A DNA stretch of 64,000 nt from a virus (Duplodnaviria; Heunggongvirae; Uroviricota; Caudoviricetes), in IMG/VR virus record IMGVR_UViG_3300006143_000275, one strand, 5' to 3'. The notes under the pieces are model-generated. The model saw nothing but the letters and a program-made list of their open reading frames with translations. It made no database searches and was not told the DNA's origin. Made by a program: the position numbers and the translations under genes. How positions within the stretch are numbered: position 1 is the stretch's first letter; each line of letters begins with the position of its first letter. Positions 1 through 31,434 of the stretch are shown here, piece by piece.

Positions 1-198
1 GGTATGCGATTGACCCATGGAAATCGTATCCACAGGATATTCACAGCCAACGACCATCCCGCTCTCTTTTACCTTTTCGACATCAAACTTACTGCCATTG
101 TCAGGCCATACGAGTTTTGCTGTGACCATTCTTTCACCACCTTCAACATAGGCGCGCAATACAAAAGGGCGGGCTTACGCCCGCCCCGTTGCGCTGGA

Positions 199-5962: not shown

Positions 5963-6421
5963 TCAGTCATACCAGCACCGTACCCCATCATCACTGATAT
6001 CGAACTCATCAGCGAAACGGAACATCATAGCAAAGTCAATAATATCCTGCTGACTTGGCGCCGTTTTCTTCCCAACACCCTCAAAAGTAATTCTGAAATC
6101 GTTCCTGTCTGGGCCAATACAGTAACCGTGAACATACCATCCGTCTGTCTCCCGCTTGCGGAGAAACTCAATAATTTCTCCGGCAGTAGGGGAGTCATTC
6201 TGGGAGTCTCTCTTATCAATAACACCAACTTCCTCAAGCTGGTCGATTTGAGAAATCGTAAGTTCGTGGAAACGTCTCAGCCCGCCGCCATATTTCTCGG
6301 ATTTGTAGTCCTCACCAAAAACAATCTGGTCGCGCTGGTCGGCAAGGCTTAATCTGAAAATATCCAACATATGTATGACCTCCTTAATACCACTCCCAGT
6401 AGACAAGCGCAGAAGTCTCAC
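5963..6421 (-). CDS. hypothetical protein
   Basis: ORF in a co-directional gene string. Confidence 0.3.
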   Translation of the reverse strand: MRLLRLSTGSGIKEVIHMLDIFRLSLADQRDQIVFGEDYKSEKYGGGLRRFHELTISQIDQLEEVGVIDKRDSQNDSPTAGEIIEFLRKRETDGWYVHGYCIGPDRNDFRITFEGVGKKTAPSQQDIIDFAMMFRFADEFDISDDGVRCWYD

Positions 6422-16515: not shown

Positions 16516-17130
16516 TTACTCCTGGAACCTGTAGTCAACTCTCTCCCAGTTCCCAGGTCTTAGATATGTGATATAGATTTTGTCAAACGCCCAAGAACCG
16601 ACATCTCCCATGCCAGCCTCTCCGCGATAATCTCCGCCTCCCATGCCATTCCCGATGCAAGTGAGAAGCGGAAGCGGGTTGATACACCACACGCCAGACA
16701 TCCCGTATCTGTCGCGGACGGAGTTCCGCCTTATGTATTCCTCTATGTCGATGTAGCACTTTTTCGTTGCATTCACCAGATAGCACCCGGCGCTGTCGAG
16801 ATCGAGCTTATATTGTGGCGTTTCCGGTGAGATATCCTGAACGCTTCTGTATTCACCCCACACGCCGTTATACTTTTCAAGGAAGGCTTCAACACTTGTG
16901 ATATATCCATCACCAAAGTTGCATCCATCCTCCACTGCATCGGTGGCATAGTCTCCCATCCATGCGATACGGGCCGGTCTGTCCTCGATTTCATGCAGCA
17001 CCGCGTTAACAAAGTTATTGCCGATCCATGAGTGCTCCATCAGCTTGAGCCCATTGTCAAATGCGTGAGAATACGCAGACCGTTCCTCTCCGTCTTCAAA
17101 AATCATCAGCGGTCTATAATACTGTCCCAT
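16516..17130 (-). CDS. hypothetical protein
   Basis: 204-aa ORF. Confidence 0.3.
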   Translation of the reverse strand: MGQYYRPLMIFEDGEERSAYSHAFDNGLKLMEHSWIGNNFVNAVLHEIEDRPARIAWMGDYATDAVEDGCNFGDGYITSVEAFLEKYNGVWGEYRSVQDISPETPQYKLDLDSAGCYLVNATKKCYIDIEEYIRRNSVRDRYGMSGVWCINPLPLLTCIGNGMGGGDYRGEAGMGDVGSWAFDKIYITYLRPGNWERVDYRFQE

Positions 17131-17570
17131 CAGCTCGCCCTCCCAAGCACAGCTATAAAGCTGTCCGTTTCAATATCCTCCTCGATGTCAGCAGGCGCAA
17201 ACCAGTCGTCGGCATCTTCATCGGTGTCTTCTTCAATATCGTCTTCGACATTTTCTTCTTCTTCATCCCACGCTTCGTTTTCGTCCATATGCCGGAGGAC
17301 TTCGTTCTTGTAGTCGTCAAATGAATAATCTGCGTCCTCATATCCGCCATATCCATCCTCGCGGTAGTAATCGCAACGAGTCGGAATGTTCGCCAGAAGG
17401 CCACGGATTTCTTCCCAGTCACGCATATTGCCGATTGTTTCCAGCAGGATTTCATTGAGGTATTCTGCATCATAAACATCGTTGCAGAGATCATCAATTC
17501 CCTCATCAACACAGAAACTGATTAGGTCGCCGAATGAGTTTACACCTTCGATAAATTCCTGACGTGTCAT
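17130..17570 (-). CDS. highly acidic small protein with a conserved C-terminal tail (DSFIAVLGRAS)
   Basis: 146 aa, D/E-rich; C-terminus matches the tail shared by six other small ORFs. Confidence 0.4.
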   Translation of the reverse strand: MTRQEFIEGVNSFGDLISFCVDEGIDDLCNDVYDAEYLNEILLETIGNMRDWEEIRGLLANIPTRCDYYREDGYGGYEDADYSFDDYKNEVLRHMDENEAWDEEEENVEDDIEEDTDEDADDWFAPADIEEDIETDSFIAVLGRAS

Positions 17571-17594
17571 GAAGAAGACCCCTTTCTGTTGAAT

Positions 17595-17669
17595 TGGTGA
17601 CCCGGACGGGAGTCGAACCCGCGTTACCAGAGTGAAGGTCTGGTGTCTTAACCGCTTGACTACCGGGCC
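17595..17669 (-). tRNA. tRNA-Glu (anticodon TTC)
   Basis: Cloverleaf read by eye; T-loop GGTTCGACTCC; encoded CCA. Confidence 0.6.
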
Positions 17670-17672
17670 GTA

Positions 17673-17748
17673 TGGTCTGAGTGGGGAGGATCGAACTCCC
17701 GGCCTCGTGATCCCAAATCACGCGCTCTGCCAACTGAGCTACACCCAG
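17673..17748 (-). tRNA. tRNA-Pro (anticodon TGG)
   Basis: Anticodon loop TTTGGGA; T-arm GGGAGTTCGATCCTCCC; CCA. Confidence 0.6.
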
Positions 17749-17752
17749 ATAT

Positions 17753-17919
17753 TGTGCGGGCGGGGATTTTCACCCCGCATAGGTAAGATTATGTACCTGC
17801 TACCGAGCTTGTCGCCCATCGGCTACTTCACCGAACCCAAACAGGAGGACAACGATGGACTCGAACCATTGTCTTACCCTACCTCTCGTTATAGCGTCTA
17901 CCTATTCCGCCACCGCACA
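17753..17919 (-). ncRNA. atypical tRNA-like element, about 167 nt, with a tRNA-Leu-type D-arm and a large internal insertion
   Basis: 5' TGTGCGG pairs perfectly with 3' CCGCACA; D-arm GTGGCGGAATAGGTAGACGC matches tRNA-Leu; internal T-arm-like GGACAACGATGGACTCGAACCATTGTC; no clean anticodon arm. Confidence 0.3.
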
Positions 17920-17935
17920 TTTTGTATTGTGTAGC

Positions 17936-17970
17936 TCTAAAAACAGGACTCCCGCAGGCGAGCGTCCCTG
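17936..17970 (-). terminator. rho-independent terminator (minus strand)
   Basis: Hairpin CAGGGACGCTCGCCTGCGGGAGTCCTG followed by TTTTT on the minus strand. Confidence 0.45.
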
Positions 17971-18039
17971 TAAACCTGCTACACTCGGTTTTGAGCGTGC
18001 CCATCCCGCAGGGCGGCGGGGTGCTCCGTGTACTTTGGA

Positions 18040-18073
18040 GCAAAGAAAAAGATCGTGCCGAGAACTACGGCAC
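18040..18073 (-). terminator. rho-independent terminator after tRNA-Gly (minus strand)
   Basis: Hairpin GTGCCGTAGTTCTCGGCAC then TCTTTTTCTTTG on the minus strand. Confidence 0.5.
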
Positions 18074-18075
18074 GC

Positions 18076-18151
18076 TGGAGTGAGAGACGGGACTTGAACC
18101 CGCAGCTTCCGACTTGGAAGGACGGCACTCTGCCAGTTGAGTTACTCCCAC
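18076..18151 (-). tRNA. tRNA-Gly (anticodon TCC)
   Basis: Anticodon loop CTTCCAA; T-arm GCGGGTTCAAGTCCCGT; CCA. Confidence 0.55.
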
Positions 18152-18154
18152 AGA

Positions 18155-18574
18155 TGGTGGAGCCGGCGGGAATCGAACCCGCGTCCGAAATTCCTACATG
18201 AGCAAGACCTTTTTACGCAATAGGTTTCCTTTTAGGTGGATGCCTTATGGCGGGGCACCAAGATGGAATCCAAATCTACCCCAGGGCGTACCAGTTAAGT
18301 ACACCTCCACCACCTTGTCTTTTTGAACAGATTACAAGGAAAACTGTTTTTCTGGCGTATCCTCGACCGCAGGTACTTACCCAGCCAGAGGTGTACCGTT
18401 TTGGAATCCTGCCGACAGTTAAGCGGCGACCCTCTCTGCCATGAAGGCGGCGAAAGCGGGATGGATCATAACAACACTCATATCATTGTCATTTCATTTT
18501 TTGTTTAGCCTTAAGGCGGTCTCTACCTGCGAATCTTACTCTCTCAGAACCCCGTCGAAACCTTTACGGCCCCG
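18155..18574 (-). ncRNA. ssrA: tmRNA (ssrA)
   Basis: 5' end GGGGCCGTAAAGGTTTCGACGGGG matches the tmRNA 5' consensus GGGGCUGAUUCUGGAUUCGACGGG; 3' end GGACGCGGGTTCGATTCCCGCCGGCTCCACCA matches the tmRNA tRNA-like 3' end; the termini pair as an acceptor stem; about 420 nt; internal short ORF ending VAA-TAA. Confidence 0.6.
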
Positions 18575-18677
18575 TAAAAGAGGCCCGGCGTATAGCCGGG
18601 CCGTTCCCCACATTGTTATAGACCGCATGGGTGCGCTGTCTTATTAAATACCATGTTTGCACGTTCCCCTTTCGGGG

Positions 18678-18753
18678 TGGAGCTGGTAACAGGAGTCGAA
18701 CCCGCGACACTCGGAGTACAAAACCGATGCTCTACCAACTGAGCTATACCAGC
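18678..18753 (-). tRNA. tRNA-Thr (anticodon TGT)
   Basis: D-arm GCTCAGTTGGTAGAGC; anticodon loop TTTGTAC; CCA. Confidence 0.55.
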
Positions 18754-18756
18754 AAA

Positions 18757-18832
18757 TGGAGCTGATGCACGGACTCGAACCGCGAACCTAAGCTTTACGA
18801 AAGCCTCGCTCTGCCATTAGAGCTACATCAGC
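18757..18832 (-). tRNA. tRNA-Thr (anticodon CGT)
   Basis: Anticodon stem AGGCT/AGCTT with loop TTCGTAA; T-arm CGCGGTTCGAGTCCGTG; CCA. Confidence 0.55.
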
Positions 18833-18836
18833 ATGT

Positions 18837-18911
18837 TGGCTGGGGTGACTGGATTCGAACCAGCGAATGAGGGAGTCAAAGTCCCTTGCCTTGCCGCTTG
18901 GCGACACCCCA
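18837..18911 (-). tRNA. tRNA-Gln (anticodon TTG)
   Basis: 5' U, 3-bp D-stem, anticodon loop CTTTGAC; CCA. Confidence 0.55.
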
Positions 18912-18916
18912 ATATT

Positions 18917-18942
18917 GGGAGCGGTCGAATTGACCGCTCCGT
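18917..18942 (-). terminator. perfect 9-bp hairpin between the metallophosphatase gene and the tRNA cluster (terminator or processing site)
   Basis: GGAGCGGTC-GAATT-GACCGCTCC. Confidence 0.35.
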
Positions 18943-18946
18943 AGGA

Positions 18947-19621
18947 CTATACAAGCATTACCTTATTGTATAAGGCAATGAATTGATCATTCATAATTTT
19001 GTCGATATGGTAGTGTCCAAAATACCAACGTTTGAACTGAAGGTCAACCATAATACGCTCCAGATAGCTTACGAGCGGATCATTTTCATACCAATCTGCA
19101 ATCATGGTCTGAATGCTTCTTGGCGCACAGTGCGTTAACACATAATCAACAGACCATCCGTTGTTATCAAGCGCGTTGATCCCCCGTTCCATCTCTTCCA
19201 TAGATGGCATTTCGTCTTTCCACCAAGAAATATGTTCTGTACGATATTCTTTGTCATGAGATCTTGCACCGCCCATCACAAAGAACCTTTGCCCGTCGAT
19301 GGTCAGAACTTGTCCTCTCTCCAGATGGTAAATATTTGGCGCTATTTCTCGGACTTTACCACCGAACTTATCTTGAAGCGAAAATTTGCGGAGGATATCA
19401 AAATTCTCATGGTTCCCATCGATCCAGAGCGTGGTGAAGTTTTTACCCGCGAGCCATTTTTTCCACCATATCTCTCGTGTAGAACCGTCCCATATGAGCC
19501 CAAAATCCCCACAGACAATTAAATAATCCTTCTTAGTGAGCGATTTTTGCATCGGGAAGTTCTTGACAGACAACTTTTTTATGTCAATGTCCGCATGAGT
19601 ATCCCCTGTCACATAGATCAT
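18947..19621 (-). CDS. calcineurin-like metallophosphoesterase (phage Ser/Thr phosphatase-like)
   Basis: GDTHAD, GDFG, GNHEN motifs. Confidence 0.6.
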   Translation of the reverse strand: MIYVTGDTHADIDIKKLSVKNFPMQKSLTKKDYLIVCGDFGLIWDGSTREIWWKKWLAGKNFTTLWIDGNHENFDILRKFSLQDKFGGKVREIAPNIYHLERGQVLTIDGQRFFVMGGARSHDKEYRTEHISWWKDEMPSMEEMERGINALDNNGWSVDYVLTHCAPRSIQTMIADWYENDPLVSYLERIMVDLQFKRWYFGHYHIDKIMNDQFIALYNKVMLV

Positions 19622-19899
19622 TTTGAACCTCCAAGCATACGCATAAAGCTGTCTTCCTCAATGTCGATGGTTCCTTCTGGTTCATACAGCCTGATCTCAT
19701 TGCGTCCAACATACCATCCAAGTCCATGCTTGCAAGTATGTCCGCAGTCGTGTCCTCTTTGGATGGGCTTACCCCAATTAACACCAATATTATCTGATAC
19801 CCTGCATACTGTGCCAAGGTCGCCTATCTTGATATCAGGATTGCCGTCTGGATGATTACGAATAGCTTCGACACAATCTCCTACTTGAAATTCCATCAC
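19618..19899 (-). CDS. small Cys/His-rich protein (HDCGHTCKHGLGWYV) with a ubiquitin-like C-terminal tail ...SFMRMLGGSK
   Basis: 93 aa; paralog of 19856-20190. Confidence 0.4.
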   Translation of the reverse strand: MMEFQVGDCVEAIRNHPDGNPDIKIGDLGTVCRVSDNIGVNWGKPIQRGHDCGHTCKHGLGWYVGRNEIRLYEPEGTIDIEEDSFMRMLGGSK

Positions 19900-20190
19900 G
19901 CTTTGTCACCCCCCCCGCACGGAGAGCGACACCAAGGAAGGAGTTCTCGTCGATATCTTCAACATCATCTTCGTACGGCCTGATATATCTCGTATGGACA
20001 TACCACCCGTGGCCGTACTCACAATTTCCGGAGCAATCATGTCCTTCACCTAATTCATTATCCCAATCGACACCAACATGATCTCCGTCAATATCGCACA
20101 CCGTTCCAGTATCGCCAACCATGATATAGTCACTCTCATCTGGGTTGTTGACGATAGCTTCTACTCGATCTCCAATTTGATACCTTGCCA
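19856..20190 (-). CDS. small Cys/His-rich protein (HDCSGNCEYGHGWYV); C-terminus ...SFLGVALRAGG reads through a G8 tract
   Basis: Start at MARYQIGDRVEA with an AAAGGGTGG ribosome-binding site; the G8 tract (plus-strand C-run 19909-19916) sits on the GG codons; one G fewer gives ...LRAGG-stop. Confidence 0.4.
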
Positions 20191-20636
20191 TGGATACCAC
20201 CCTTTCGTGAAAGTCTGGCGCAATACTTAAAACCTGTGTTTTATCCCATACATAATAGCCATACTGCATGGGATGGCAAAAGGACGCTGAACTCGGGATT
20301 TTCCACTACCTCTTATTTCAAATAAATACTCGGATCAGCGTCCTAAAGTCCTTGAAATACGCACTTTGTTGTTTGTGATCTGCATTATATCTCGGCAGGC
20401 TACGAGGAGGGCTCCCTGCATCCGGATACAGCTCCCGGTTACTGCTGTCATCTGGTTTGGAATGATGTCGTGTGTCTGTGGGTTCCTGACATCGGGTGCC
20501 GAACTCCTTGAGTCTCAGTGTGTTGGCGGGTTTGGTGACCTTTGTCCTGATGGCCCCTGTGCGGGTCGGCGCCTGAGCAGGTGGTCGTCGGCTGCCGCGG
20601 GATCTCTGATCGCACGCACTGCGGCCGCCAAGCCGT

Positions 20637-20683
20637 CATCCTCCACCCAACCATTCGTTACTCTGATTTACAATACAGAGTTT
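20637..20683. repeat. conserved hairpin motif copy A
   Basis: CATCCTCCACCCAACCATTCGTTACTCTGATTTACAATACAGAGTTT. Confidence 0.55.
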
Positions 20684-20719
20684 AAGTCTTTCGACTTAAA
20701 ATACATCGCAACAACAAAG

Positions 20720-21298
20720 TTATTTTATATGCACAATATATCGCCCGCCGGTCGGCGGCTCTTGCTCAACGACCCGAAAACCAACAGAAGAATACTGATC
20801 CCAAACCTGTCCCCAGTTGATATAGTCGGTCAGCACGTCTTTACTGAGGGTGTCAAGCATCTCGTCTGTAACACCGTGGTCAAACGGCACTTTGAGTTCA
20901 GTCGCCAGATAACAAGCTGCGGTCTCCTTTGCGTTCATCGCCCAATGAAGATCAGATATGTCCTCGAACATAAAATCGTTTTCTTTCAGCTTACGCACAA
21001 ATTCCGGATCGAACAGGTCACCAGAAGACGAAGCTTCCATCAGAACCTTCAAATAATCTTCCGTCATCCCAGGATTTTCGCTGTTGATATCATCCAGTAT
21101 ATCGTTCAATCCACTGATATCGTCGTTTCGGCTGATTGGAATGTTGGGCGTGGTGGACAGAATAATGTAATCATAATGATTCTCTAATTCTGCCCGCAGA
21201 TTACATGGCAGTACAATGACTTTGGATTCGCCGCAATCCAAATCACTGACTTCGACTGCCAGTTGAATCATATCAACCACCTCTTTCATGCTTTGCAT
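20720..21298 (-). CDS. acidic hypothetical protein
   Basis: 192 aa, D/E-rich; sits between two copies of the conserved intergenic motif, immediately downstream (minus sense) of the RT gene. Confidence 0.35.
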   Translation of the reverse strand: MQSMKEVVDMIQLAVEVSDLDCGESKVIVLPCNLRAELENHYDYIILSTTPNIPISRNDDISGLNDILDDINSENPGMTEDYLKVLMEASSSGDLFDPEFVRKLKENDFMFEDISDLHWAMNAKETAACYLATELKVPFDHGVTDEMLDTLSKDVLTDYINWGQVWDQYSSVGFRVVEQEPPTGGRYIVHIK

Positions 21299-21552
21299 AA
21301 ACTTTGTAATCTACCATAAGGGATAGGAAGCTGGCCATGGTTTCCTCCAGAGAGGTGAGTCTGGGAATGTCATCTCGTGTGTTCCCGGCTGTCCGAACTG
21401 GTGTCAGGTTTCAGGAATTTTTGTGACGGAGTTCCTGCTGATTTCCTGGCGAAATGTGCAGTTCGGTAATAGTTCCGTTCTTCGTGATGTTGGTAAGGGT
21501 GTTTAGCATCTCCTGCTGCCGTCGCGGCCGGCAGCACTGCGCAGCCTGGCAG

Positions 21553-21601
21553 GCTCCCTTCTCCCAGCCATTCGTTACTCTGATTTACAATACAGAGTGC
21601 C
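21553..21601. repeat. conserved hairpin motif copy B
   Basis: CTCCCTTCTCCCAGCCATTCGTTACTCTGATTTACAATACAGAGTGCC. Confidence 0.55.
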
Positions 21602-21643
21602 TTTTGAGGAACAAAAGGCTATACATTACAAAATTTTGCTTAT

Positions 21644-22783
21644 TTATGCGGCCAAATCCTCATGGATGGTACGCATTACGTCCGTTTGATATTTTTCGTT
21701 GTTGTACTTGATGACCTCGTCAACATACTTTTCTTCAACCATCCGGTAGTAGTTGATAAGGCCGCGCAAAACCTGAACATCGTGCAGTTCCCAGACAATT
21801 CCGTTCTTACGGTCGAGGATGTAGTTGCTGATCATTGCACGAAAACGCTGCTTGTTCTTGTGACCGATGGTGATCTCATTGTCCTTATTGAGCATGAGCC
21901 CGAGGTTCCAATTACTGCCGGCTCTGGAACCATACCTCGTCTTCTCATCCTTGATCTTGAACGGCGCATGGAAATCATCCAGCGTCTGATTGATGAAGTC
22001 GATGACCTTATTGTAGTCAAACTCTCTCCGGCTTGAAATTAGAGAGTCGTCTGCGTATCTGGTGTAAACGAACGACTGCCCGTTAAAATCACGCAGGGTA
22101 TTGTATACCTTGTGATCAAGGGGGATCATCATCAGATTTGTGAGCATCGGAGAAATCGGCGTGCCCTGCGGCAATCCGCCATGAAGAAAACAGAGGTTGA
22201 GTGCCTTGTCCAGTGCTGCTCTGCCCCGTTCTGACTTGACAATCTCGCTGAACGGGAAAATCAAAGAGAGCGAATACCGAAGGAATACCAGCGTTGTGTC
22301 CCCAAAAAAGTTCGAGAAATCCGTCTTTAAGAACCAATGACTGTCATTCCTCTGGTGACGTTTGATGGCGTCAATGGTGGAACGATTCTTAACATAGGCA
22401 AAGGCGGAGGTGTGGTACAGCGCAAACATCTTGGTCTCAAACAAAGTCTTCAGATTCCGAAGCGCCGTCATCAGTTCTGGCACAGGGGCATTGATCTCAC
22501 GCAGGCCGCCGGACTTCTTCGGAATATGGAATGTGGTATAGAGGGCTTCTCTCGGAACGGCATACAGCTCGGCATTTTGTTCGCAAAAACTCTCCAGAGC
22601 GGAGACCATACCGGCGAAATCGAACCGATCCAGAAACTGTGGCTTGAGTCGCTGTGCGAAATGCGTTCTGGTATTGGTGCTGTTTGAAGTTATCATAGAC
22701 TGCATGTTGACCTCACCAGATATGATTTCCTCAAATGATATCTGATGGTATGCAGGCGATTGCATGACGGTTATGTATGGCAT
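21644..22783 (-). CDS. reverse transcriptase (retron / group II-like RT domain, standalone)
   Basis: RT motifs YTTFHIPKKSGGLREINAP, GLPQGTPISPMLTNLMM and YTRYADDSLIS (YxDD box); 379 aa; no maturase/endonuclease or RNase H extension. Confidence 0.8.
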   Translation of the reverse strand: MPYITVMQSPAYHQISFEEIISGEVNMQSMITSNSTNTRTHFAQRLKPQFLDRFDFAGMVSALESFCEQNAELYAVPREALYTTFHIPKKSGGLREINAPVPELMTALRNLKTLFETKMFALYHTSAFAYVKNRSTIDAIKRHQRNDSHWFLKTDFSNFFGDTTLVFLRYSLSLIFPFSEIVKSERGRAALDKALNLCFLHGGLPQGTPISPMLTNLMMIPLDHKVYNTLRDFNGQSFVYTRYADDSLISSRREFDYNKVIDFINQTLDDFHAPFKIKDEKTRYGSRAGSNWNLGLMLNKDNEITIGHKNKQRFRAMISNYILDRKNGIVWELHDVQVLRGLINYYRMVEEKYVDEVIKYNNEKYQTDVMRTIHEDLAA

Positions 22784-23082
22784 ATTTTTAATACCTCCTG
22801 ATGTCTGTATTCTGGTATACAGTAGGTTGAGGAATTCAGGATGCGATGGGTACTTGAGAGCTGGGACTGAGTGCGGGCTCGGTGGGTAATCTGGTGAGTG
22901 ATTTGCGGCGGTCCGATGGTTCTTGGGGTCGCCATCTGTCTTCCTGTTTGCTGTCCGTCACCTTTCTGGTCGAGATGTCAAGAGTTCTTTGCGTATTTGG
23001 AGCAGTAGAAAACAGTTTATTTATTACCTCTTGACCTCGGTGGCGGGCAGGCGCCTTCAGATTCCGCCTCCGGGCGGGGTGT

Positions 23083-23128
23083 CCCTTCTCCCAGCCATGC
23101 GCAACTCTGATTTACAATACAGAGCACC
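23083..23128. repeat. conserved hairpin motif copy C (start of the RT leader)
   Basis: TCCCTTCTCCCAGCCATGCGCAACTCTGATTTACAATACAGAGCACC. Confidence 0.55.
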
Positions 23129-23227
23129 CTCAGAATAACTCTGAAAGTAATGCAATACAGACTATATGGAAGGGGCAGCGGCAACCAAAGCCACTGCCCC
23201 TATAGAACTATCGTAAAACGTGATGCC

Positions 23228-23899
23228 TTACACGGCGATCACGTCGAATTCAAAAGCATCCACAAGAATCATCTTGCGGAGTTTCTCGCCCTTCACGAAG
23301 TTGATGAAGTTGGCTACGCCGTAGGCAACGATCGTTCGCACCGTCGGAACAACCGACAGTGTGATATTGCAGGCAGAAACGGGCGTCGCCTCTTTTGCCT
23401 CATCATGAGAGAACGCCATGCTGTCGATAAAGTTCTCCACCATCTTCTTGTCGCTCCAGTCAGCGGCATAGTGCTGGGCGTCCGTCAGCCGCATCCGGAA
23501 GTCGAACATCCCCTTGACGAACGTGTTCTCCTTACAGGAGGTGGCGATCTCCCGGCGGAGGTCAATGTTGTCCACCGCCAGGAACACATAACCGGAGAGA
23601 CGCTGGCCTGTCCAGCCCTCTTTGACCAGCTTCAGATCGGGGGCGCAGTCCGGATTGATCTCGGTGAGATACTCAGCCAAAGCATCAACCTTGGCCTTGC
23701 CGATATCCGTATTCCGGAACATCTGGTTGGCAATGTTGTGGGCTTCTACGGTATCGAAGTCATACAGCGTGATTTTCGTAATGCCGAACCGCACCAGATT
23801 CTCAGCGACCGTGGAACCAATCGCTCCACAGCCGATGATATGAATCCGCGATTCGAGCATATCCGGCTTGAAGAATTCGTAGGACTTCGCCAAATCCAT
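23228..23899 (-). CDS. ThiF/MoeB-family E1-like adenylyltransferase
   Basis: Rossmann IHIIGCGAIGSTVAENLVRFGITKITLYDFDTVE; 223 aa. Confidence 0.7.
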   Translation of the reverse strand: MDLAKSYEFFKPDMLESRIHIIGCGAIGSTVAENLVRFGITKITLYDFDTVEAHNIANQMFRNTDIGKAKVDALAEYLTEINPDCAPDLKLVKEGWTGQRLSGYVFLAVDNIDLRREIATSCKENTFVKGMFDFRMRLTDAQHYAADWSDKKMVENFIDSMAFSHDEAKEATPVSACNITLSVVPTVRTIVAYGVANFINFVKGEKLRKMILVDAFEFDVIAV

Positions 23900-23916
23900 T
23901 GTTTGTCTCTCCTTTC

Positions 23917-24789
23917 TTACTGTCCGAGGTATAGGCGGTCATAGGGATCGTCTTCGTCGAATTGGTAGTCGGAAAAGGACCGGCCAATGCCGGTATCACC
24001 TCCGTTTACCTTCGGTTTTGTTTTGACTCCGACGACGCTCGCACCGGCCGTCGCCGCCGGCGTTGTTGTCTGACTGATGGGTGTGACGACCCGCGTCTGC
24101 GTCTGCTGATAGGTTCCCTGAAAACCGGTGACAGGCTTATAGGTTCTGTTGGTGACGATCTCCTTGGCGCTGCTGATGAAAGCCTGAAGATCCACGCCGA
24201 CATCTCCAATATACACATCAACATCTGCCGTGTCGTACAGGGTGTTGTTCTTCAGATCGAAGATGCGGACAAAGTGCTCGTACCGCTTGTTCCAGATCAT
24301 GAAGATGTAGTAGTCGTCATCGGAGATTTGCTCCAGAATCTTCTCCTGGTGAGTTGTGTCCACACCAGAGGGAGACACGCCCATATTGACGTGGCTGTGT
24401 CCTTGCATCCGGATGTTATTGAACACATCATCATCAAAGGAGTAAAGCCACGTCTGGTACGCCTCTTGATCGGTGTTGACCGTTGCGCCGGTAACAACCT
24501 GCGGGTATACCAAAATGTCGGTGATGTGGAAGATGGACGGATCCTGCTCATCACGGTGAACCACGCCGTGCCACGCGACCTCGTCGTTGAACTGCTGAAT
24601 GAGCGAGTTCATCTTGGCGAAGGCAATCGAGGACAGGTAGACAGTTGCCCGGTCGTCATCGCCCTCCCACTTGAACGTCCGGCTGTATTCCAGCTTTCCG
24701 TCAAACATCTTGGTGGACTTCACCTTTGCGATGAACTCCTCCTGAATTTTTTGCAGCAGCTCGTCCGTGAGCTTAATGGGCTTACTCAT
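23917..24789 (-). CDS. JAB/MPN (JAMM) metalloprotease-domain protein
   Basis: JAMM motif GHSHVNMGVSPSGVD (HxHx7Sx2D) with an upstream Glu; start taken at MSKPIKLTDELL. Confidence 0.65.
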   Translation of the reverse strand: MSKPIKLTDELLQKIQEEFIAKVKSTKMFDGKLEYSRTFKWEGDDDRATVYLSSIAFAKMNSLIQQFNDEVAWHGVVHRDEQDPSIFHITDILVYPQVVTGATVNTDQEAYQTWLYSFDDDVFNNIRMQGHSHVNMGVSPSGVDTTHQEKILEQISDDDYYIFMIWNKRYEHFVRIFDLKNNTLYDTADVDVYIGDVGVDLQAFISSAKEIVTNRTYKPVTGFQGTYQQTQTRVVTPISQTTTPAATAGASVVGVKTKPKVNGGDTGIGRSFSDYQFDEDDPYDRLYLGQ

Positions 24790-26275
24790 GGCTCTCCTCC
24801 TGTTCTTTTTCTTTCTTCGCCTTGACATCTTGTTCCTCCAACCACAATACGGCCTCAAACGGCGTCTTGGTCGTACCGTCGGGCATTTCGATTACCTTAC
24901 CGATCCTGTTCGAGAACAGCAACTGCGTCATCTTGCCGGTTGTTGCGCTCTCCTGAACATTGACGCTCTTTGCCGACTGAACACAAGCAGCTACCGCGCC
25001 GACATAATCCCGGTTACGCATAGATTGGCGAATTGTCGCCTCATTTCCACCAAGGCAGTGAAACGCCTGGATGTGCTGGTTCGGCGTGTGATCCATGATG
25101 ATATCCGACGGGAAATCGTATCCGCTAATCCCGGCGTACCTGCCGTTATCGAAGTTCAGCGAATATGCGGCGCAAATGCGAATCTTCATCGTCTCTTTGA
25201 CGAAAATCTCCGTCATCAGACGCTTAATGCGCTCTACCGTCATATTTTCGTTGTCACGATATTCATAGATGTAGCTACGGTTATTCTGAATGACGGACTC
25301 CGCTGCGTCAGGATCGAAGTTTGCAACCGTGGTGGTTACAATGAACTTGATTTCGCCATTGTATACGCTGACCAGATGCAGCGAATTGTTGCATAGGAAG
25401 TAGTCCAAAAGCTCGCTGCTCTCCGCGCCGCCTCCGTGTGTGATTTTATCGACCAGACCGCACTCCTGCGTTCTCAGGTCGTCCATCTGCTGGTAGTAAT
25501 TGGAGAAAGTGCTCTCCAAATCACGCATCCTGCGATCCATATCGTTGATCTGGCTGCGGACGGACTCCAGCTTCCGGCGGTCAAAGTGTGTTTCAAAGCC
25601 GGTCAACTGATTGCGGATAACCTGTGACCGGAAGTCAAACCGCTTGGCGAACTCCTGAATCTTCGTTTCATAGCTGGGGGCGTAACGCTTTGTGAGCGTC
25701 TTGACGATCTCAATCTCCTCGTCAGTCATCGGATTGGACTCGAAGTACCACGGGAAGTAGCGGGAAATCAGAGACTCCAGCATGTGCCACCGCTTCATGT
25801 TCATCTTTTCCGTGAAGATGATGGTGTTGCGGTACTCCTCGTTCACATAGACCTTGGCGCGGAACTTTGCGTCGCTCTCAATCCATGCGGACAGATCCGC
25901 CAGGAGCTTGTATCCAGAGACTGTCTTTGGAACACCTTCAACGAGTTTCTCGAAGCAGGTTGTGTTGCTCTCGTCGCTCCCCTCAAATGAATGGATGAGC
26001 AAAATGCCGGTTGAACCATCCATAATCGGAGTTCGGTTAAAGAAAGCCCTGACGCAGTCTCTCGGAGACGAGCCAGATAACTGCCCGGAACTGTAGTCTG
26101 TGCTTTTATATCGCAGTGTGATTGACTCCTCTTTCGGAACCCTGCTATACAGCAAAGCTCTCAAGGTCGCAACGAACGACTCGTCATTGCGGAACTTATC
26201 TCCGCCGATATTCGGGAATACGGTCGATGCGATCTCATTGGTGAGAGTCAGACCAGTGATTTCTTTTGAGAACAT
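24782..26275 (-). CDS. large hypothetical protein (497 aa) in the E1/JAB operon; possible E2-like region
   Basis: C-terminal DHTPNQHIQAFHC loosely resembles the UBC HPN...C catalytic motif (weak). Confidence 0.35.
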   Translation of the reverse strand: MFSKEITGLTLTNEIASTVFPNIGGDKFRNDESFVATLRALLYSRVPKEESITLRYKSTDYSSGQLSGSSPRDCVRAFFNRTPIMDGSTGILLIHSFEGSDESNTTCFEKLVEGVPKTVSGYKLLADLSAWIESDAKFRAKVYVNEEYRNTIIFTEKMNMKRWHMLESLISRYFPWYFESNPMTDEEIEIVKTLTKRYAPSYETKIQEFAKRFDFRSQVIRNQLTGFETHFDRRKLESVRSQINDMDRRMRDLESTFSNYYQQMDDLRTQECGLVDKITHGGGAESSELLDYFLCNNSLHLVSVYNGEIKFIVTTTVANFDPDAAESVIQNNRSYIYEYRDNENMTVERIKRLMTEIFVKETMKIRICAAYSLNFDNGRYAGISGYDFPSDIIMDHTPNQHIQAFHCLGGNEATIRQSMRNRDYVGAVAACVQSAKSVNVQESATTGKMTQLLFSNRIGKVIEMPDGTTKTPFEAVLWLEEQDVKAKKEKEQEESHE

Positions 26276-26364
26276 AGCCTGCTCCTTTTCTGAAAGATTT
26301 AAGGGCTCCCACCGCTCAGATGGGAGCCCTCGGCCCTATGTATAGGGGACTGCGGTGGGTCTGA

Positions 26365-26619
26365 TCAGGCGTTGTCAGCCTTGACGACGGAGATCAGGAA
26401 GCACTTGTCGTGGCCGGGCTCGCCGGTGTAGCCCATCTCGGCGAAGGTCTGATCCAGCTTGGCACCGGTGACGGTCTCGCCGTCCAGGGACAGCATACCC
26501 ACGGAGTAGTCGATGCCGGTCTCGCCCTGGGTGCTCTCCAGAGCCTGGCGGATGGTGGTGTTGGGGTTCAGGTTGAAACGGGCGCGCTTCAGGTTGTTAC
26601 CGATAGTGACGTTAATCAT
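26365..26619 (-). CDS. small protein (84 aa), possible beta-grasp/Ubl-like
   Basis: Alternating strand/helix pattern MINVTIGNN...MLSLDGETVTGAKL reminiscent of ThiS/MoaD; C-terminus is not GG. Confidence 0.3.
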   Translation of the reverse strand: MINVTIGNNLKRARFNLNPNTTIRQALESTQGETGIDYSVGMLSLDGETVTGAKLDQTFAEMGYTGEPGHDKCFLISVVKADNA

Positions 26620-26706
26620 GATTCATTCTCCTTCTTATTCAAAAAATTTTGGGTTGACAGGTTTGTGTTGCCGGGCGGGGATTCCCCCGCCCGGACTTAG
26701 CCATCC

Positions 26707-27108
26707 TTAGATGACGGTGATGTTAGCCATGACCTCGGCGTTCTCAGCCTCGACCTCGGCCAGGGCATCGTCGATGCCGGCCTCCACCTTGTTCAGGCGA
26801 ACCACGGCCTTGCCGACCAGCTTGGCAGCATAGTCGATCACGTTCTCAGTCCCAGCGGGGACGGGAATCGTGATGGTGGCCAGCTTCGCCTCGTCGTGGG
26901 TCTCGGAGGCGAAAGTCGCGCCGTTCTGGTTGATGCTGCCGGCAGCAGCGGCGGTCTCCACGCGGAAGATTTCCTCCTTCTTACCGTTCTCATCGGTCTC
27001 GATGAGACGAAGAGCCTTCGGGCGGTACTCCTCCAGCGTCTTCAGAGCCTTGAGGCTCTTGCCGCTGGTGACGATGATCGCGTCACCAGCAATGGTGATC
27101 TTTGCCAT
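26707..27108 (-). CDS. hypothetical protein (start at MAKITIAGD)
   Basis: Ribosome-binding site AAAGGATG upstream; the listed ORF extends through a structured leader. Confidence 0.35.
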   Translation of the reverse strand: MAKITIAGDAIIVTSGKSLKALKTLEEYRPKALRLIETDENGKKEEIFRVETAAAAGSINQNGATFASETHDEAKLATITIPVPAGTENVIDYAAKLVGKAVVRLNKVEAGIDDALAEVEAENAEVMANITVI

Positions 27109-27219
27109 ACTGATACATCCTTTCTGTTCGGGCTTTGCCCTTAATATGTACCCCGTTTGCTCACCCCCCCCCATCGGGGGCTCCCCAGCCTGAACCACGA
27201 GGAGGTGGGGCCGATCAGG

Positions 27220-27253
27220 CCGCAAAGAACCCCGTAACTTTTCAGCTACGGGG
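27220..27253 (-). terminator. rho-independent terminator (minus strand)
   Basis: CCCCGTAGCTGAAAAGTTACGGGG followed by TTCTTTG. Confidence 0.5.
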
Positions 27254-27259
27254 CTCTTG

Positions 27260-27703
27260 TCAACTTCTGATGATTCGATTGAATGCGTCTTCTGATATTT
27301 CCGGGTTATTGCAGGCCATCCCCTCTGGATGGTATTCAAAGTGGCAGTATGGATACCAGTCGTTATAGTCTCCGGTTCCAACCTCCAAAATGATCTCGTC
27401 AGTTACCTCGTCTTGCATCACCAGGATGTCATTATCGTATCCGCCATCTTCTTCGTTCTTCATGTAACATTTCATGGCCTGCGGCGGAAACGAATATCTC
27501 GGCGGATCATCGGACACAACAAGCTCCCTGCATCTGCTTCTATATCCATCTTCCGGGTCTTCGACAGCCATGTAGTGAACACCGTCAAGCGTAAACTTTA
27601 CGAAGTTGCAATCCTGTGATTCACCCCAACTATCATCCACACATATACGTCCGGTTTCGACACCTGACAGTTTGTGTGTTCCTACCAAATCGGAAAGTTC
27701 CAC
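27260..27703 (-). CDS. small protein with conserved C-terminal tail ...EDAFNRIIRS
   Basis: 147 aa; GTG start after GGGAGGTG. Confidence 0.4.
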   Translation of the reverse strand: MELSDLVGTHKLSGVETGRICVDDSWGESQDCNFVKFTLDGVHYMAVEDPEDGYRSRCRELVVSDDPPRYSFPPQAMKCYMKNEEDGGYDNDILVMQDEVTDEIILEVGTGDYNDWYPYCHFEYHPEGMACNNPEISEDAFNRIIRS

Positions 27704-27707
27704 TTAA

Positions 27708-28022
27708 TCACCTCCCGATGATAGCCGCAAAACTTTCGTCGGAGATGTCCTCTTGCTCTTCCCCATAGAAAGTGCATTTCATGTAGTCGTCCGCATCGTT
27801 CTTTGACCCATATCTCACAGTATCGCCTCTGATATAGTAGCAGAAATTACCACGGTGTTTCTCCCAGTAATTTTTCTTCAGAGGACTCTCGCCGGTCGGG
27901 TATTTGATGCCAAACGCGACTAATATTGCGGCAAATTCACGCTCCAAATCTGCTTCTGGGCAATTTACAGCAACATAGCTGTTTTCTCCCAGCATTGATG
28001 TATCAAATGGCCTGTCCCACAT
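27708..28022 (-). CDS. small protein (paralog of 28028-28384), tail ...DESFAAIIGR
   Basis: Shared CPxxDL...KCTFYG core with the next ORF. Confidence 0.4.
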   Translation of the reverse strand: MWDRPFDTSMLGENSYVAVNCPEADLEREFAAILVAFGIKYPTGESPLKKNYWEKHRGNFCYYIRGDTVRYGSKNDADDYMKCTFYGEEQEDISDESFAAIIGR

Positions 28023-28027
28023 TTGTC

Positions 28028-28384
28028 TTACCTCCCTTGATTACCCCCCCCCGCAGAGATAATTGCTTCAAATCCGGCATCGGAGATTTCAAAGTCGGGC
28101 TCCACGCCGTAAAATGTGCATTTGATATAATTTCTGTATGCGCTGTCTGAGTAACATGTTCTGCTCCCATATTTCATTGTTCCTCGCGGTTCAATGCGAT
28201 AACAGGTTTCTTCTCTGTTCTCATGCCAATGAGTTTCTCCAACTGGCTCATCACCATACCATTTTATATCGTTTTCTTCTAAAAACGAAAACAGTTCATC
28301 TACCAAGTCTTTGTCAGGACAATGGATGATGACACCGTTGAATAGCATTGAAATCTCAAGCGGAGTGTCTGGCCAATCTACCAT
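28028..28384 (-). CDS. small protein, tail ...DAGFEAIISAGGGNQGR through a G9 tract
   Basis: G9 (plus-strand C-run 28044-28052) encodes GGG; two fewer G give ...ISAGG-stop. Confidence 0.4.
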   Translation of the reverse strand: MVDWPDTPLEISMLFNGVIIHCPDKDLVDELFSFLEENDIKWYGDEPVGETHWHENREETCYRIEPRGTMKYGSRTCYSDSAYRNYIKCTFYGVEPDFEISDAGFEAIISAGGGNQGR

Positions 28385-28390
28385 TGAGAC

Positions 28391-28636
28391 TCACCCCCCC
28401 CGAGTTAGAATATTGAGCAGAGACTCGAAGTCGGTGTAATCGTAAGGATTGATGGGATGACCATTATACATAGCAAAGAGCACTTTTGCATCGTTGGCTG
28501 GAACAAAATTGCATTCACCATTCCAATCGTCAACGACGCCCTGAAGGTACTTAGCCTGAATCAAGTACGGATCGCCATCTGCGTTTTCAGTGACGACAAC
28601 CGTATCGCTACCAAGCATAACAGTTTTCAGATCCAC
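28391..28636 (-). CDS. ubiquitin-sized protein (81 aa) ending ...LNILTRGG
   Basis: The C-terminal RGG is encoded inside a G8 tract (C-run 28394-28401) and followed directly by a stop; GTG start. Confidence 0.4.
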   Translation of the reverse strand: MDLKTVMLGSDTVVVTENADGDPYLIQAKYLQGVVDDWNGECNFVPANDAKVLFAMYNGHPINPYDYTDFESLLNILTRGG

Positions 28637-31348: not shown

Positions 31349-31434
31349 AGAGAGTGGTGGGAATCGAACCCACGCAGCGCATATCCGGTTGACAGGCATG
31401 TATCTGCCCCGCTCTGCCACTGAGCTACACTCTC
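31349..31434 (-). tRNA. tRNA of uncertain identity (about 86 nt) with an apparently 8-nt anticodon loop and a long variable region
   Basis: Canonical acceptor, D-arm (GCTCAGTGGCAGAGC) and T-arm (GTGGGTTCGATTCCCAC); best anticodon stem GGCAG/CTGTC encloses ATACATGC; no encoded CCA. Confidence 0.35.

Follow-up and report, generated by a model that had tools for sequence, protein, structure and literature searches.

A short C-terminal signal carried by diverse proteins is a well-known kind of element. Encapsulin cargo-loading peptides and the acidic E-block signal of the Dot/Icm system share a layout in which a C-terminal peptide follows a flexible linker on diverse cargo. Among the ubiquitin-like protein (Ubl) systems of bacteria, Bil operons are ordered Ubl, E2, deubiquitinase (DUB) and E1, and the DUB trims Ubl precursors, thereby pre-processing the Ubl (PMC10557695); the cyclic-oligonucleotide-based antiphage signalling system (CBASS) shows that proteins lacking a beta-grasp fold can be activated by an E1 (PMC10097602). 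Both subjects meet in a 64,000-nucleotide stretch of tailed-phage DNA (IMG/VR record IMGVR_UViG_3300006143_000275, Caudoviricetes; the whole stretch is called the window below), in which small open reading frames (ORFs) with a common C-terminal tail accompany genes for a Ubl, a JAB peptidase, a ThiF-type E1 and a retron-type reverse transcriptase (RT). No description of the motif or of the phage module was found in the literature searched, and the profile libraries used recognise neither; it is the present instance and its genomic setting that are new. From sequence comparisons, the tail is tentatively read as a docking tag that would tether diverse accessory proteins to one common, phage-specific partner, a reading to which we assign a probability of roughly 0.45.

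The shared tail and its bearers

A sequence-only reading of this DNA had listed seven ORFs with a shared, ubiquitin-like C-terminal tail. All seven exist on the minus strand; the one placed at 19856-20190 was off by one nucleotide, its ATG lying at 20191. Named by length, they are:

p146: 17130-17570, minus strand, 146 aa, very acidic; tail DIETDSFIAVLGRAS at 17133-17177
p93: 19618-19899, minus strand, SH3-like body; tail DIEEDSFMRMLGGSK at 19621-19665
p137: 19856-20191, minus strand, paralogue of p93, 111 aa from the ATG at 20191 or 137 aa from 20269; tail DIDENSFLGVALRAGG, ending at 19910
p147: 27260-27703, minus strand, singleton body; tail EISEDAFNRIIRS at 27263-27301, the protein ending ...IIRS
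p104: 27708-28022, minus strand, body of the 'CP..DL...KCTFYG' type; tail DISDESFAAIIGR at 27711-27749
p118: 28028-28384, minus strand, paralogue of p104; tail EISDAGFEAIISAGG... at 28031-28090
p81: 28391-28636, minus strand, 81 aa, a marginal member; ends ...YTDFESLLNILTRGG before the stop

The motif can be summarised as [DE]-I-[DES]-[DET]-x-[SAG]-F-x-x-Φ-Φ. The strict pattern [DE][IVL][DES][DETS][DENA][SAG]F..[IVLMA][ILVA] has six matches in the six-frame translation of the 64 kb, all of them in minus-strand ORFs and 2-22 residues ahead of the stop. Residue-shuffled ORFs gave a mean of 0.017 matches (maximum 1), which bears out the enrichment over shuffled controls on which the proposed family depended. 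The pattern had been composed after the six tails were viewed, so that the match count alone is circular, and leave-one-family-out hidden Markov models (HMMs) were built for this reason, one body family being omitted each time and about 435 six-frame ORFs scored. The omitted p93, p147 and p104 tails ranked first, p146 third and p137 fourth; omitted p118 fell outside the top four. The p147 tail was the top-scoring tail with every HMM, and p81 scored 2-3 bits, at the level of noise. The shared tail is thus real for six of the seven ORFs, and the seventh, p81, is marginal, being listed because of its position and RGG ending only. The leave-one-out searches repeatedly returned, below threshold at 6-8 bits, an ORF at 5963-6421 on the minus strand that ends ...ADEFDISDDGVRCWYD before its stop; of the motif, this ORF shows the acidic 'DISD' part and lacks F-x-x-Φ-Φ.

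With the tails removed, p93 and p137 remain related (48% identity, E 1e-25), as do p104 and p118 (38%, E 3e-16), and the bodies of p146, p147 and p81 are singletons. The bodies are therefore unrelated at the sequence level, as had been claimed, although they form five groups without detectable mutual similarity and not four. Searches of all seven proteins against Pfam, PHROGs and PADLOC returned nothing except SH3-like matches for p93 and p137. The AlphaFold2 model of p93 (19 sequences, mean pLDDT 83.7) is a confident SH3-like beta barrel over residues 1-70, followed by a low-confidence linker and a short helix, DSFMRML, and its Foldseek matches are SH3, CAP-Gly and Xrn1-SH3-like folds. The CAP-Gly matches are weak (Foldseek E 0.016-0.05), and YorP of Bacillus subtilis phage SPbeta was also weakly matched. 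CAP-Gly domains of eukaryotes bind acidic C-terminal tails of the ...EEY/F type; that the multi-copy SH3-like family might itself be the receptor for the tails is pure speculation.

Tails in related phages

Loci syntenic with the window were collected from relatives, designated here by L or P numbers (L001, L004, L012, L014, L016 and 92 metagenome or genome loci). An iterated HMM started from window-type tails stayed within its 13 seeds, and a broader seed anchored by hand was needed. With the resulting broad HMM, about 60 distinct C-termini from the 1416 ORFs of loci with the module scored at least 6 bits, and its controls gave 3-4 (mid-protein segments), 0-2 (N-termini) and 2-6 (reversed tails). 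At 8 bits or more, there were about 47 among the 1416 ORFs as against 1 among 1670 ORFs of module-less control loci, the control set being 60 loci, taken from a scan for an AAA protein, that belong to other large gut phages and lack the module. The bodies that carry tails in relatives include SH3_12, DUF6273, DUF551, Fic/DOC and p146-like acidic proteins, together with many of no recognised family. The Fic/DOC protein (L025, 17108-17839; Pfam 7.5e-23) has the tail ...LDEYLSIASK before its stop.

Homologous body families keep the tail at the same position in distant relatives, and the residues of the motif differ from phage to phage. In four IMG/VR phage contigs of greater distance (L017, L020, L021, L023), the SH3_12-like homologues lack a tail. 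A second query for relatives of the L015 type gave no match, and upstream of the AAA gene L116 and L117, the closest of the 60 loci from the AAA scan, show no synteny with L015.

The manner in which the residues differ was analysed with 33 tails from eight genomes, anchored on the first hydrophobic residue of the core. The mean BLOSUM62 score per position was 0.99 for tails on unrelated bodies in the same genome, 0.33 for homologous bodies in different genomes and 0.18 for unrelated bodies in different genomes. The excess within genomes is significant (Mann-Whitney p 3.6e-4), and the observed difference was reached by no permutation. It resides in positions -6 to -1 (0.92 vs -0.14, permutation p < 3e-4), which are never encoded by a ribosome-binding site, and was not seen at positions +1 to +5. 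Tails on unrelated proteins of one phage thus change in concert.

Selection on the tail peptide

Homogenisation of DNA could produce the same pattern of concerted change, but the codons vary from tail to tail: serine is written AGC, TCC or AGT, phenylalanine TTT or TTC, isoleucine ATT, ATC or ATA, and the codons for Asp and Glu differ too. Mean nucleotide identity between tails of different families is 52% (39-73% for pairs), and the 54 identical residues shared across families use the same codon at 22, vs 23.8 expected from codon usage. Codons are thus not shared more often than chance would give, which speaks against a repeat in the DNA or gene conversion of recent date. Concerted change without homogenisation at the DNA level is what would be predicted if the tails co-evolve with one genome-specific partner.

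Comparison of orthologues points the same way. Identity in the tail as against the body is 100% vs 57% for p104, 92% vs 67% for p118 and 83% vs 77% for p81; in p147 the tail falls below the body (58% vs 79%). In three of the four families the tail is no less conserved than the body, and all nucleotide differences in the p104 tail among orthologues are synonymous. As judged from these alignments, the core of the tail is under selection at the protein level. The same results bear on the view that the tail has no function as a peptide and is a by-product of gene-boundary DNA, through translational coupling, recombination linkers or gene conversion. Its proponents could point to the tails of p146 and p93, which by hand count are 69% identical in DNA, and to the last two to four residues, which are set by the Shine-Dalgarno (SD) sequence of the next gene; neither the codon count nor the synonymous changes of p104 fit it, nor does a tail that sits at a constant position in each body family of distant relatives with residues specific to the phage. 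The codon and orthologue tests largely refute the by-product model, and it is the least probable of the explanations considered here.

Glycine-rich ends, Shine-Dalgarno sequences and poly-G tracts

The consensus first proposed for the tail closed with (G/S)-(R/G)-(G), which had suggested a likeness to the LRLRGG terminus of ubiquitin. The codons at the ends of the genes lead to a different conclusion:

p146: CTT GGG AGG GCG AGC TGA-TG; the GGGAGG at 17139-17144 encodes G-R and serves as SD for the following gene, the ATG of which overlaps the stop at 17130
p93: CTT GGA GGT TCA AAA TGA, the next ATG overlapping; the GGAGG at 19628-19632 encodes G-G and is the SD of a metallophosphatase gene that starts at 19621
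p137: a run of eight G (G8) at 19909-19916
p147: followed by a GC-rich hairpin with no gene downstream; its ending is not G-rich
p104: ATC GGG AGG TGA TTAA GTG; the GGGAGG at 27711-27716 encodes G-R and is the SD of p147 (GTG at 27703)
p118: a run of nine G (G9) at 28044-28052 shifts the frame to ...GGGNQGR and a stop; the separate GGGAGG at 28031-28036 (...GGG AGG TAA GACAA ATG) is the SD of p104
p81: CGG GGG GGG TGA (G8 at 28394-28401), the run being also an SD-like element for the p118 start at 28384

The G-R or G-G of p146, p93, p104 and, at its second site, p118 is an in-frame GGGAGG or GGAGGT lying 5-9 nt before the next start, and in p81 and p137 the role of the SD is taken by the poly-G run. 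The last three positions of the proposed consensus are accordingly no part of a peptide motif; they are encoded by SD sequences or poly-G. The same is seen in relatives, where ...LFGG of L015 is encoded by ttt gga ggt TGA, 2-3 nt before the next start, and ...GIGGG of L016 by gga ggt ggg TAG ggt ATG; the L014 SD is read in a different frame, as cag gag gtg gtt TGA-TG, so that ...QEVV results, the tail ...EVV coming from GGAGGTGGTT. In a survey of 1337 distinct ORF ends of the phage group, ends with an SD core in the last eight codons and a start following were compared with the other ends. GG occurs within the last six residues of 17% of the former vs 2.6% of the latter, and EV at 20% vs 1.8%. 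Window proteins that lack the tail show the same effect (...NLHGGEF, ...KKYGGK and ...KYCGGEG at the stop). It follows that GG, GR and RGG ends in tightly packed genes of Firmicutes phages are largely the translated SD of the next gene, and that endings of the GG type should not be read as ubiquitin-like without comparative support.

The AGG and RGG endings of p137, p118 and p81 come from poly-G, as GCG or CGG followed by GGG GGG and then TGA or TAA. Only four G/C homopolymers of six or more occur in the window, each 8-9 long and all G on the coding strand: 19909-19916, 27164-27172, 28044-28052 and 28394-28401. Three adjoin the stops of p137, p118 and p81, and the fourth lies between genes, some 55 nt ahead of the one for a 133-aa protein of the module. 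Their length ranges from 7 to 10 across close assemblies (L001, L004-L010, P0003, P0004) and toggles the reading frame between GG-stop and frame-shifted extensions. Because the TGA after its G8 run is in the +1 frame, p137 has no stop at the ...RAGG with which it was first thought to end, and it reads on for 17 more codons into p93; relatives with other run lengths end RAGGG (P0003), RAGGGDEA (P0004) or, with G7, AGG. Orthologues of p118 end ...ISAGG (G7, L001) or ...ISAWGG (L004-L010), and those of p81 alternate between RGG (G8) and RGG with an extension (G9). Since GG-stop is the commoner state of p81 and p118, the ...SAGGGNQGR and ...RAGGVTKRD... of the window are length variants. The tracts were not found in the more distant relatives L012, L014 and L015, and they are either hypermutable or recurrent errors of assembly or sequencing.

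In relatives the ends are very varied. Homologues of p137 and p93 finish with ...DIDDDSFIGIISHIAR, ...EIDENSFLSIALKE, ...IDTDAMNALFREVV, ...ITEDSFLQIIS or ...MSDLSLIL; where relatives keep the same E1/JAB module, the last residue of a homologous tail is V, T, R, E, P, L or K, MAQP being one of the endings, and many tails there have no glycine at all (...NALFREVV, ...AAFADLLR, ...LAFQKLMME, ...EELLSLLS). The first glycine after the hydrophobic pair is present in 25 of 40 well-anchored tails, and in a 268-aa DUF6273-like family (...DEELFELLGMAQP and stop) it is not SD-encoded, for which reason it may be a genuine cap residue.

These ends bear on a second explanation, in which the tail would be a degron shared by a cohort of early proteins and used for their timed removal by a protease of host or phage. 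Disordered hydrophobic and acidic C-terminal peptides are common protease tags, and the strictly C-terminal location of the tail and the presence of a tmRNA gene in the phage suit the idea; tags of the ClpX type need a defined terminus, and here the extreme C-terminus extends 1-14 residues past the core with any chemistry. The canonical-position tag of the phage tmRNA, ...AERVAA, is unlike the tails, nor does a conserved host protease predict concerted change specific to each genome. A degron is hence improbable, if not negligibly so.

The Ubl, JAB, E1 and RT module

The module occupies 21644-27108 on the minus strand, between two groups of tail genes, and is found also in L001, L004, L012, L014, L016, L024-L115, L176 and L177. 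In order it encodes a 133-aa protein, an 84-aa Ubl, a 497-aa protein, a JAB peptidase, a ThiF-type E1 and the RT:

Ubiquitin-fold protein: 26365-26619, minus strand, 84 aa, ends VVKADNA; AlphaFold2 pLDDT 86
497-aa protein: 24782-26275, minus strand, conserved in more than 95 loci and in the position that E2 has in Bil operons
JAB/JAMM peptidase: 23917-24789, minus strand, 290 aa from MSKPIKL; intact HSH-x7-S-x2-D motif, HSHVNMGVSPSGVD
ThiF-type E1: 23228-23899, minus strand, a stand-alone adenylation domain of 223 aa; Pfam ThiF 1.6e-26
Retron-type RT: 21644-22783, minus strand; Pfam RVT_1, PADLOC retron RT_II-A 6e-47

The phage has its own dedicated Ubl: the top Foldseek matches of the 84-aa protein are ubiquitin, SUMO and NEDD8 (TM 0.6-0.7). 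Its C-terminus, VVKADNA, is conserved apart from three relatives that have KSDGGSN, KSDGGIQ or VAKGNNAGPN, and KSDGGSN and KSDGGIQ, a diglycine with two further residues, are by analogy like a Ubl precursor. The 84-aa Ubl is likely to be the cognate substrate of the E1 and the JAB peptidase. The latter has weak matches to PADLOC JAB (E 0.004) and Rpn11 (E 0.004). The E1, of 221-225 aa in relatives, matches Uba1, MoeB and Cap2 in the PDB and E1-E2 models of PADLOC; of the Cap2 models only the E1 part is matched. Its nucleotide-binding motif reads DFDTVEAHNIANQ, in which the conserved Arg appears to be replaced by Asn; ThiF and MoeB have D.D.V..SNL.RQ.

The 497-aa protein (470-530 aa in relatives) has no match in Pfam, PHROG, PADLOC or the PDB, and a comparison with UBE2D2 by hhalign was negative. 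It was tried as an E2 and rejected on these grounds, the likeness of its 'PN.H...CLGG' to HPN...C being an impression only. A single-sequence search of IMG/VR gave no match, and a search with an alignment found 80 metagenome and 12 genome loci. In some relatives the family ends in acidic residues, ...EDDLELLDEDELF or ...DDFLEEDDLF before the stop (L051, L089).

The RT always follows the rest of the module, with the same position in L001, L012, L014, L016, L025-L103, L176 and L177. Between E1 and RT (22784-23227) lie about 445 nt without a credible ORF, the spot expected for a retron non-coding RNA; in many relatives this gap is occupied by the DUF6273-like gene (264-274 aa) whose product has the tail ...DEELFELLGMAQP. 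The module is not called by PADLOC 2.0.

The presence of an intact JAMM peptidase and an E1 beside tail genes is one of the points for a third explanation, that the tails are ubiquitin-like C-termini which the JAB enzyme would trim after GG and the E1 adenylate for conjugation, as Cap2 of type II CBASS does with CD-NTases. A hydrophobic stretch followed by x-x-G-G resembles ...LRLRGG, three families have GG-stop in most assemblies (p81 RGG, p118 AGG or WGG, p137 AGG when its run is G7), and in p118 the GG does not derive from the SD of the gene that follows. All the same, these GG come from SD or poly-G and are restricted to the window's clade; p147 and p104 have none, and relatives with the same module have tails wholly free of glycine. 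The module's own Ubl ends ADNA in the window phage, so that its E1 is not tuned to GG there, and the window tails, ending GR, GGSK, RS, AGG or RGG, are unlike VVKADNA. At 223 aa the E1 consists of an adenylation domain alone, to which no E2 is fused, and the one tail-bearing body that was modelled, that of p93, is an SH3-like barrel and not a beta-grasp. The proposals that the tail is ubiquitin-like, and that its bearers are E1 donors or JAB-processed precursors, are consequently not supported and very improbable.

Tail genes and their neighbourhood

What does hold from the sequence-only reading is the setting, a conserved tail on diverse small proteins whose genes flank a Ubl/E1/JAB module. 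All six robust tail genes are within 6.5 kb of the module, with none in the other roughly 50 kb of the window, and the Ubl gene is 0.6-1.5 kb from four tail-bearing genes. In relatives the two are interleaved: p146-like genes stand between JAB and E1 in L051, L089 and L100, a gene for a tail-bearing DUF6273 protein stands between the Ubl and a 495-aa gene in L014, and other tail-bearing DUF6273 genes are within or just past the module in L012, L032 and many others, often between E1 and RT.

This neighbourhood is also where a fourth explanation has to be weighed, namely that the tail is a virion-packaging or ejection signal which would bind the inside of the procapsid, a scaffold or the portal, so that a set of effectors (SH3-like binders, Fic, DUF6273 and others) is injected with the DNA. 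Encapsulin and E-block signals have the same layout, with diverse cargo, in part enzymes (a Fic/DOC enzyme is among the tail bearers), that carries a C-terminal peptide after a flexible linker, and a receptor encoded by each phage would suit concerted evolution. Yet the tail genes are in an early- or accessory-looking block, opposite to the plus-strand block at 41-64 kb, their neighbours are tRNAs, the RT and NAD-related genes with no capsid, portal or scaffold gene adjacent, and the motif is unlike the LxIGSL-type consensus of encapsulins. We rate packaging as unlikely, on a par with the degron.

Several described peptides were also tried and rejected. The beta-clamp-binding motif (Q-L-[SD]-L-F or Q-L-x-L-x-L) does not fit window tails, which have no Gln and no Leu before Phe, some relatives having ...[SD]LF. 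For the tip of single-stranded DNA-binding protein (SSB), the Phe of window tails is 7-10 residues from the end and Pro is absent. A membrane-targeting helix of the MinD type would be basic and the tail is acidic; the defining residues of the ClpP-docking IGF loop are absent in the window; and an ssrA-like ClpX tag (LAA/VAA type) fails on the variable termini and on the phage tmRNA tag, ...RVAA, which is unlike the tails.

A docking peptide and its possible partner

As proposed here, the tail would begin with an acidic, flexible linker; next would come one hydrophobic residue, in most cases I or V, then two to four residues that are acidic or small, and last a short amphipathic Φ-x-x-Φ-Φ segment (F-x-x-I-I or F-x-x-V/M-L in the window), often capped by Gly. 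Appended to the C-termini of unrelated accessory proteins of the phage lineage, it would tether its bearers non-covalently to one partner that differs from phage to phage, the leading candidate being a component of the adjacent Ubl/497-aa/JAMM/E1 module. Residues past the hydrophobic pair (GR, GG, RGG or AGG in the window) would be outside the signal. Docking is favoured because of the concerted evolution, the anatomy of a disordered linker with a short amphipathic segment, and the interleaving with a conserved module; the p93 model, with its confident body, weak linker and detached helix, is the usual picture of a disordered docking motif.

A number of points weigh against docking or against its extension to the module. 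Both the docking action and the identity of the partner are matters that we infer, and the tail helix of p93 is modelled with a pLDDT of only about 54. A docking helix has no need to be strictly C-terminal, a location that suits a targeting signal or a degron at least equally. The tails in the test of concerted evolution were anchored manually. An HMM built from tails of distant relatives alone scores p147 at 10 bits and the other window tails at 4 or less, and a single lineage-wide motif rests mainly on homologous bodies with a tail at the same position. Finally, L176 and L177, which are distant and of low GC, have the full module including the RT and no tail ORF in 11-15 kb, and L015 has at least eight tails and no module within its 11 kb. 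In view of these loci, the link may be mere shared ancestry and genomic region; the association holds at the level of lineage and neighbourhood and not as functional dependence.

A more specific form of the docking reading, which we consider rather unlikely though somewhat less so than packaging or a degron, makes the tail bearers interchangeable adaptors or readers for the phage's own Ubl system. The targets, in the host or in a rival phage, would be bound or acted on by the bodies (SH3-like, DUF6273, DUF551, Fic and others), each with a target of its own, and the tail, SIM/LIR-like or F-box-like (see below), would plug it onto the 84-aa Ubl or the 497-aa/E1/JAMM machinery, giving a viral network of substrate receptors for Ubl conjugation in bacteria. 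Were the partner to be the adjacent module, this would be the first indication of modular receptors in a phage-borne Ubl system, as in eukaryotic and poxviral ligases. If docking as such is true, about 60 distinct proteins annotated without function, from a widespread human-gut phage lineage, would become one functional set, and one tail peptide would be an experimental hook for one partner.

The phage and its relatives

The window belongs to a large phage genome; its genes are on the minus strand as far as about 41 kb, where the plus-strand genes begin, and 12 genes for tRNA and one for tmRNA were found in it. The phage is SPbeta-like, a label given because relatives have genes for a YonO-like RNA polymerase and YonV-like genes. 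The tail-bearing lineage comprises large phages (about 110-250 kb) of Oscillospiraceae and related Clostridia, relatives being located in metagenome-assembled genomes of Oscillospiraceae, Acutalibacteraceae, Ruminococcaceae and other Clostridia. The region had no megablast match among INPHARED phages.

The tmRNA gene lies at 18155-18573 on the minus strand (Rfam RF00023, 96 bits). The tag given by ARAGORN, AVEDTPEKQFSL, falls outside the usual tag region; the ORF at the canonical position reads ...NDNDMSVVMIHPAFAAFMAERVAA to the stop, with a typical VAA ending. At 31349-31434 on the minus strand, beside a tRNA-Ala, ARAGORN places a tRNA of unassigned identity with a four-base anticodon (acat), which could be frameshift-suppressor-like, otherwise unusual, or a mis-call.

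Comparison with known systems

Encapsulin peptides and the Dot/Icm 'E-block' resemble the tail in being short C-terminal signals (acidic in Dot/Icm) on unrelated cargo for one receptor; here no shell, portal or secretion receptor is linked, and the consensus differs. The SSB tip (DDD[IL]PF) and the C-termini of T7 gp2.5 and gp4 present an acidic run that ends in Phe behind a disordered linker, and tails of some relatives finish in ...SIDDLF, ...EDELF or ...EDDLF. Window tails have two further conserved hydrophobic residues, however, and SSB is one protein that meets many partners by its handle, whereas here many proteins carry the handle.

Among eukaryotic elements, SUMO-interacting motifs (SIMs) and LC3- or Atg8-interacting motifs (LIR/AIM) are short disordered hydrophobic cores (ψψxψ, ψxψψ, [FWY]xx[LIV]) with an acidic or Ser flank, spread over many unrelated proteins and read by a ubiquitin fold. 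The tail cores FIAVL, FMRML, FAAII, FNRII and FEAII, each after a D/E/S-rich run, fit the SIM/LIR pattern, which is of low specificity, and one tail homologue, DENSFVEI, resembles SEDSFVEI of optineurin. A ubiquitin-fold protein, too, is encoded in the adjacent module. On the other side, the p93 model draws a low-confidence helix and not an extended strand, the tails are strictly C-terminal, as SIMs and LIRs need not be, and two module-bearing relatives are tail-less. The likeness carries little information. F-box, SOCS-box and poxvirus PRANC proteins likewise join variable target-binding bodies to a common C-terminal element that enters a Ubl-conjugation machine, and the tail genes, too, form clusters of several copies within the genome of a virus. 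Whereas the tail is a peptide about 12 residues long, each such box folds as a domain of about 40-50 residues, and its partners (Skp1, Elongin BC) are known; neither an E3 nor an adaptor can be recognised for the tails, and conjugation by the module is putative.

The module itself differs from type II CBASS in having a stand-alone ThiF domain and no E1-E2 fusion (Cap2). With regard to the disordered tail ending in Gly or Ala that is known from CBASS, the p93 model has a low-confidence disordered region, and the tails end in S, K, R or, depending on poly-G length, G. The closest counterpart of the module is BilABCD: the order Ubl, large protein, JAB and E1 corresponds to Ubl-E2-DUB-E1, there is a single beta-grasp Ubl together with a JAMM peptidase, and the GG with two residues in some relatives is as for pre-processing by the DUB. 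It departs from BilABCD in its 223-aa E1, a single adenylation domain in which no IAD-AAD tandem or CYS domain is evident at such length, in a 497-aa protein without detectable similarity to E2, and in a Ubl that ends ADNA. Phage-borne and always coupled to a retron-type RT, again unlike BilABCD, it may be an undescribed RT-coupled Ubl system.

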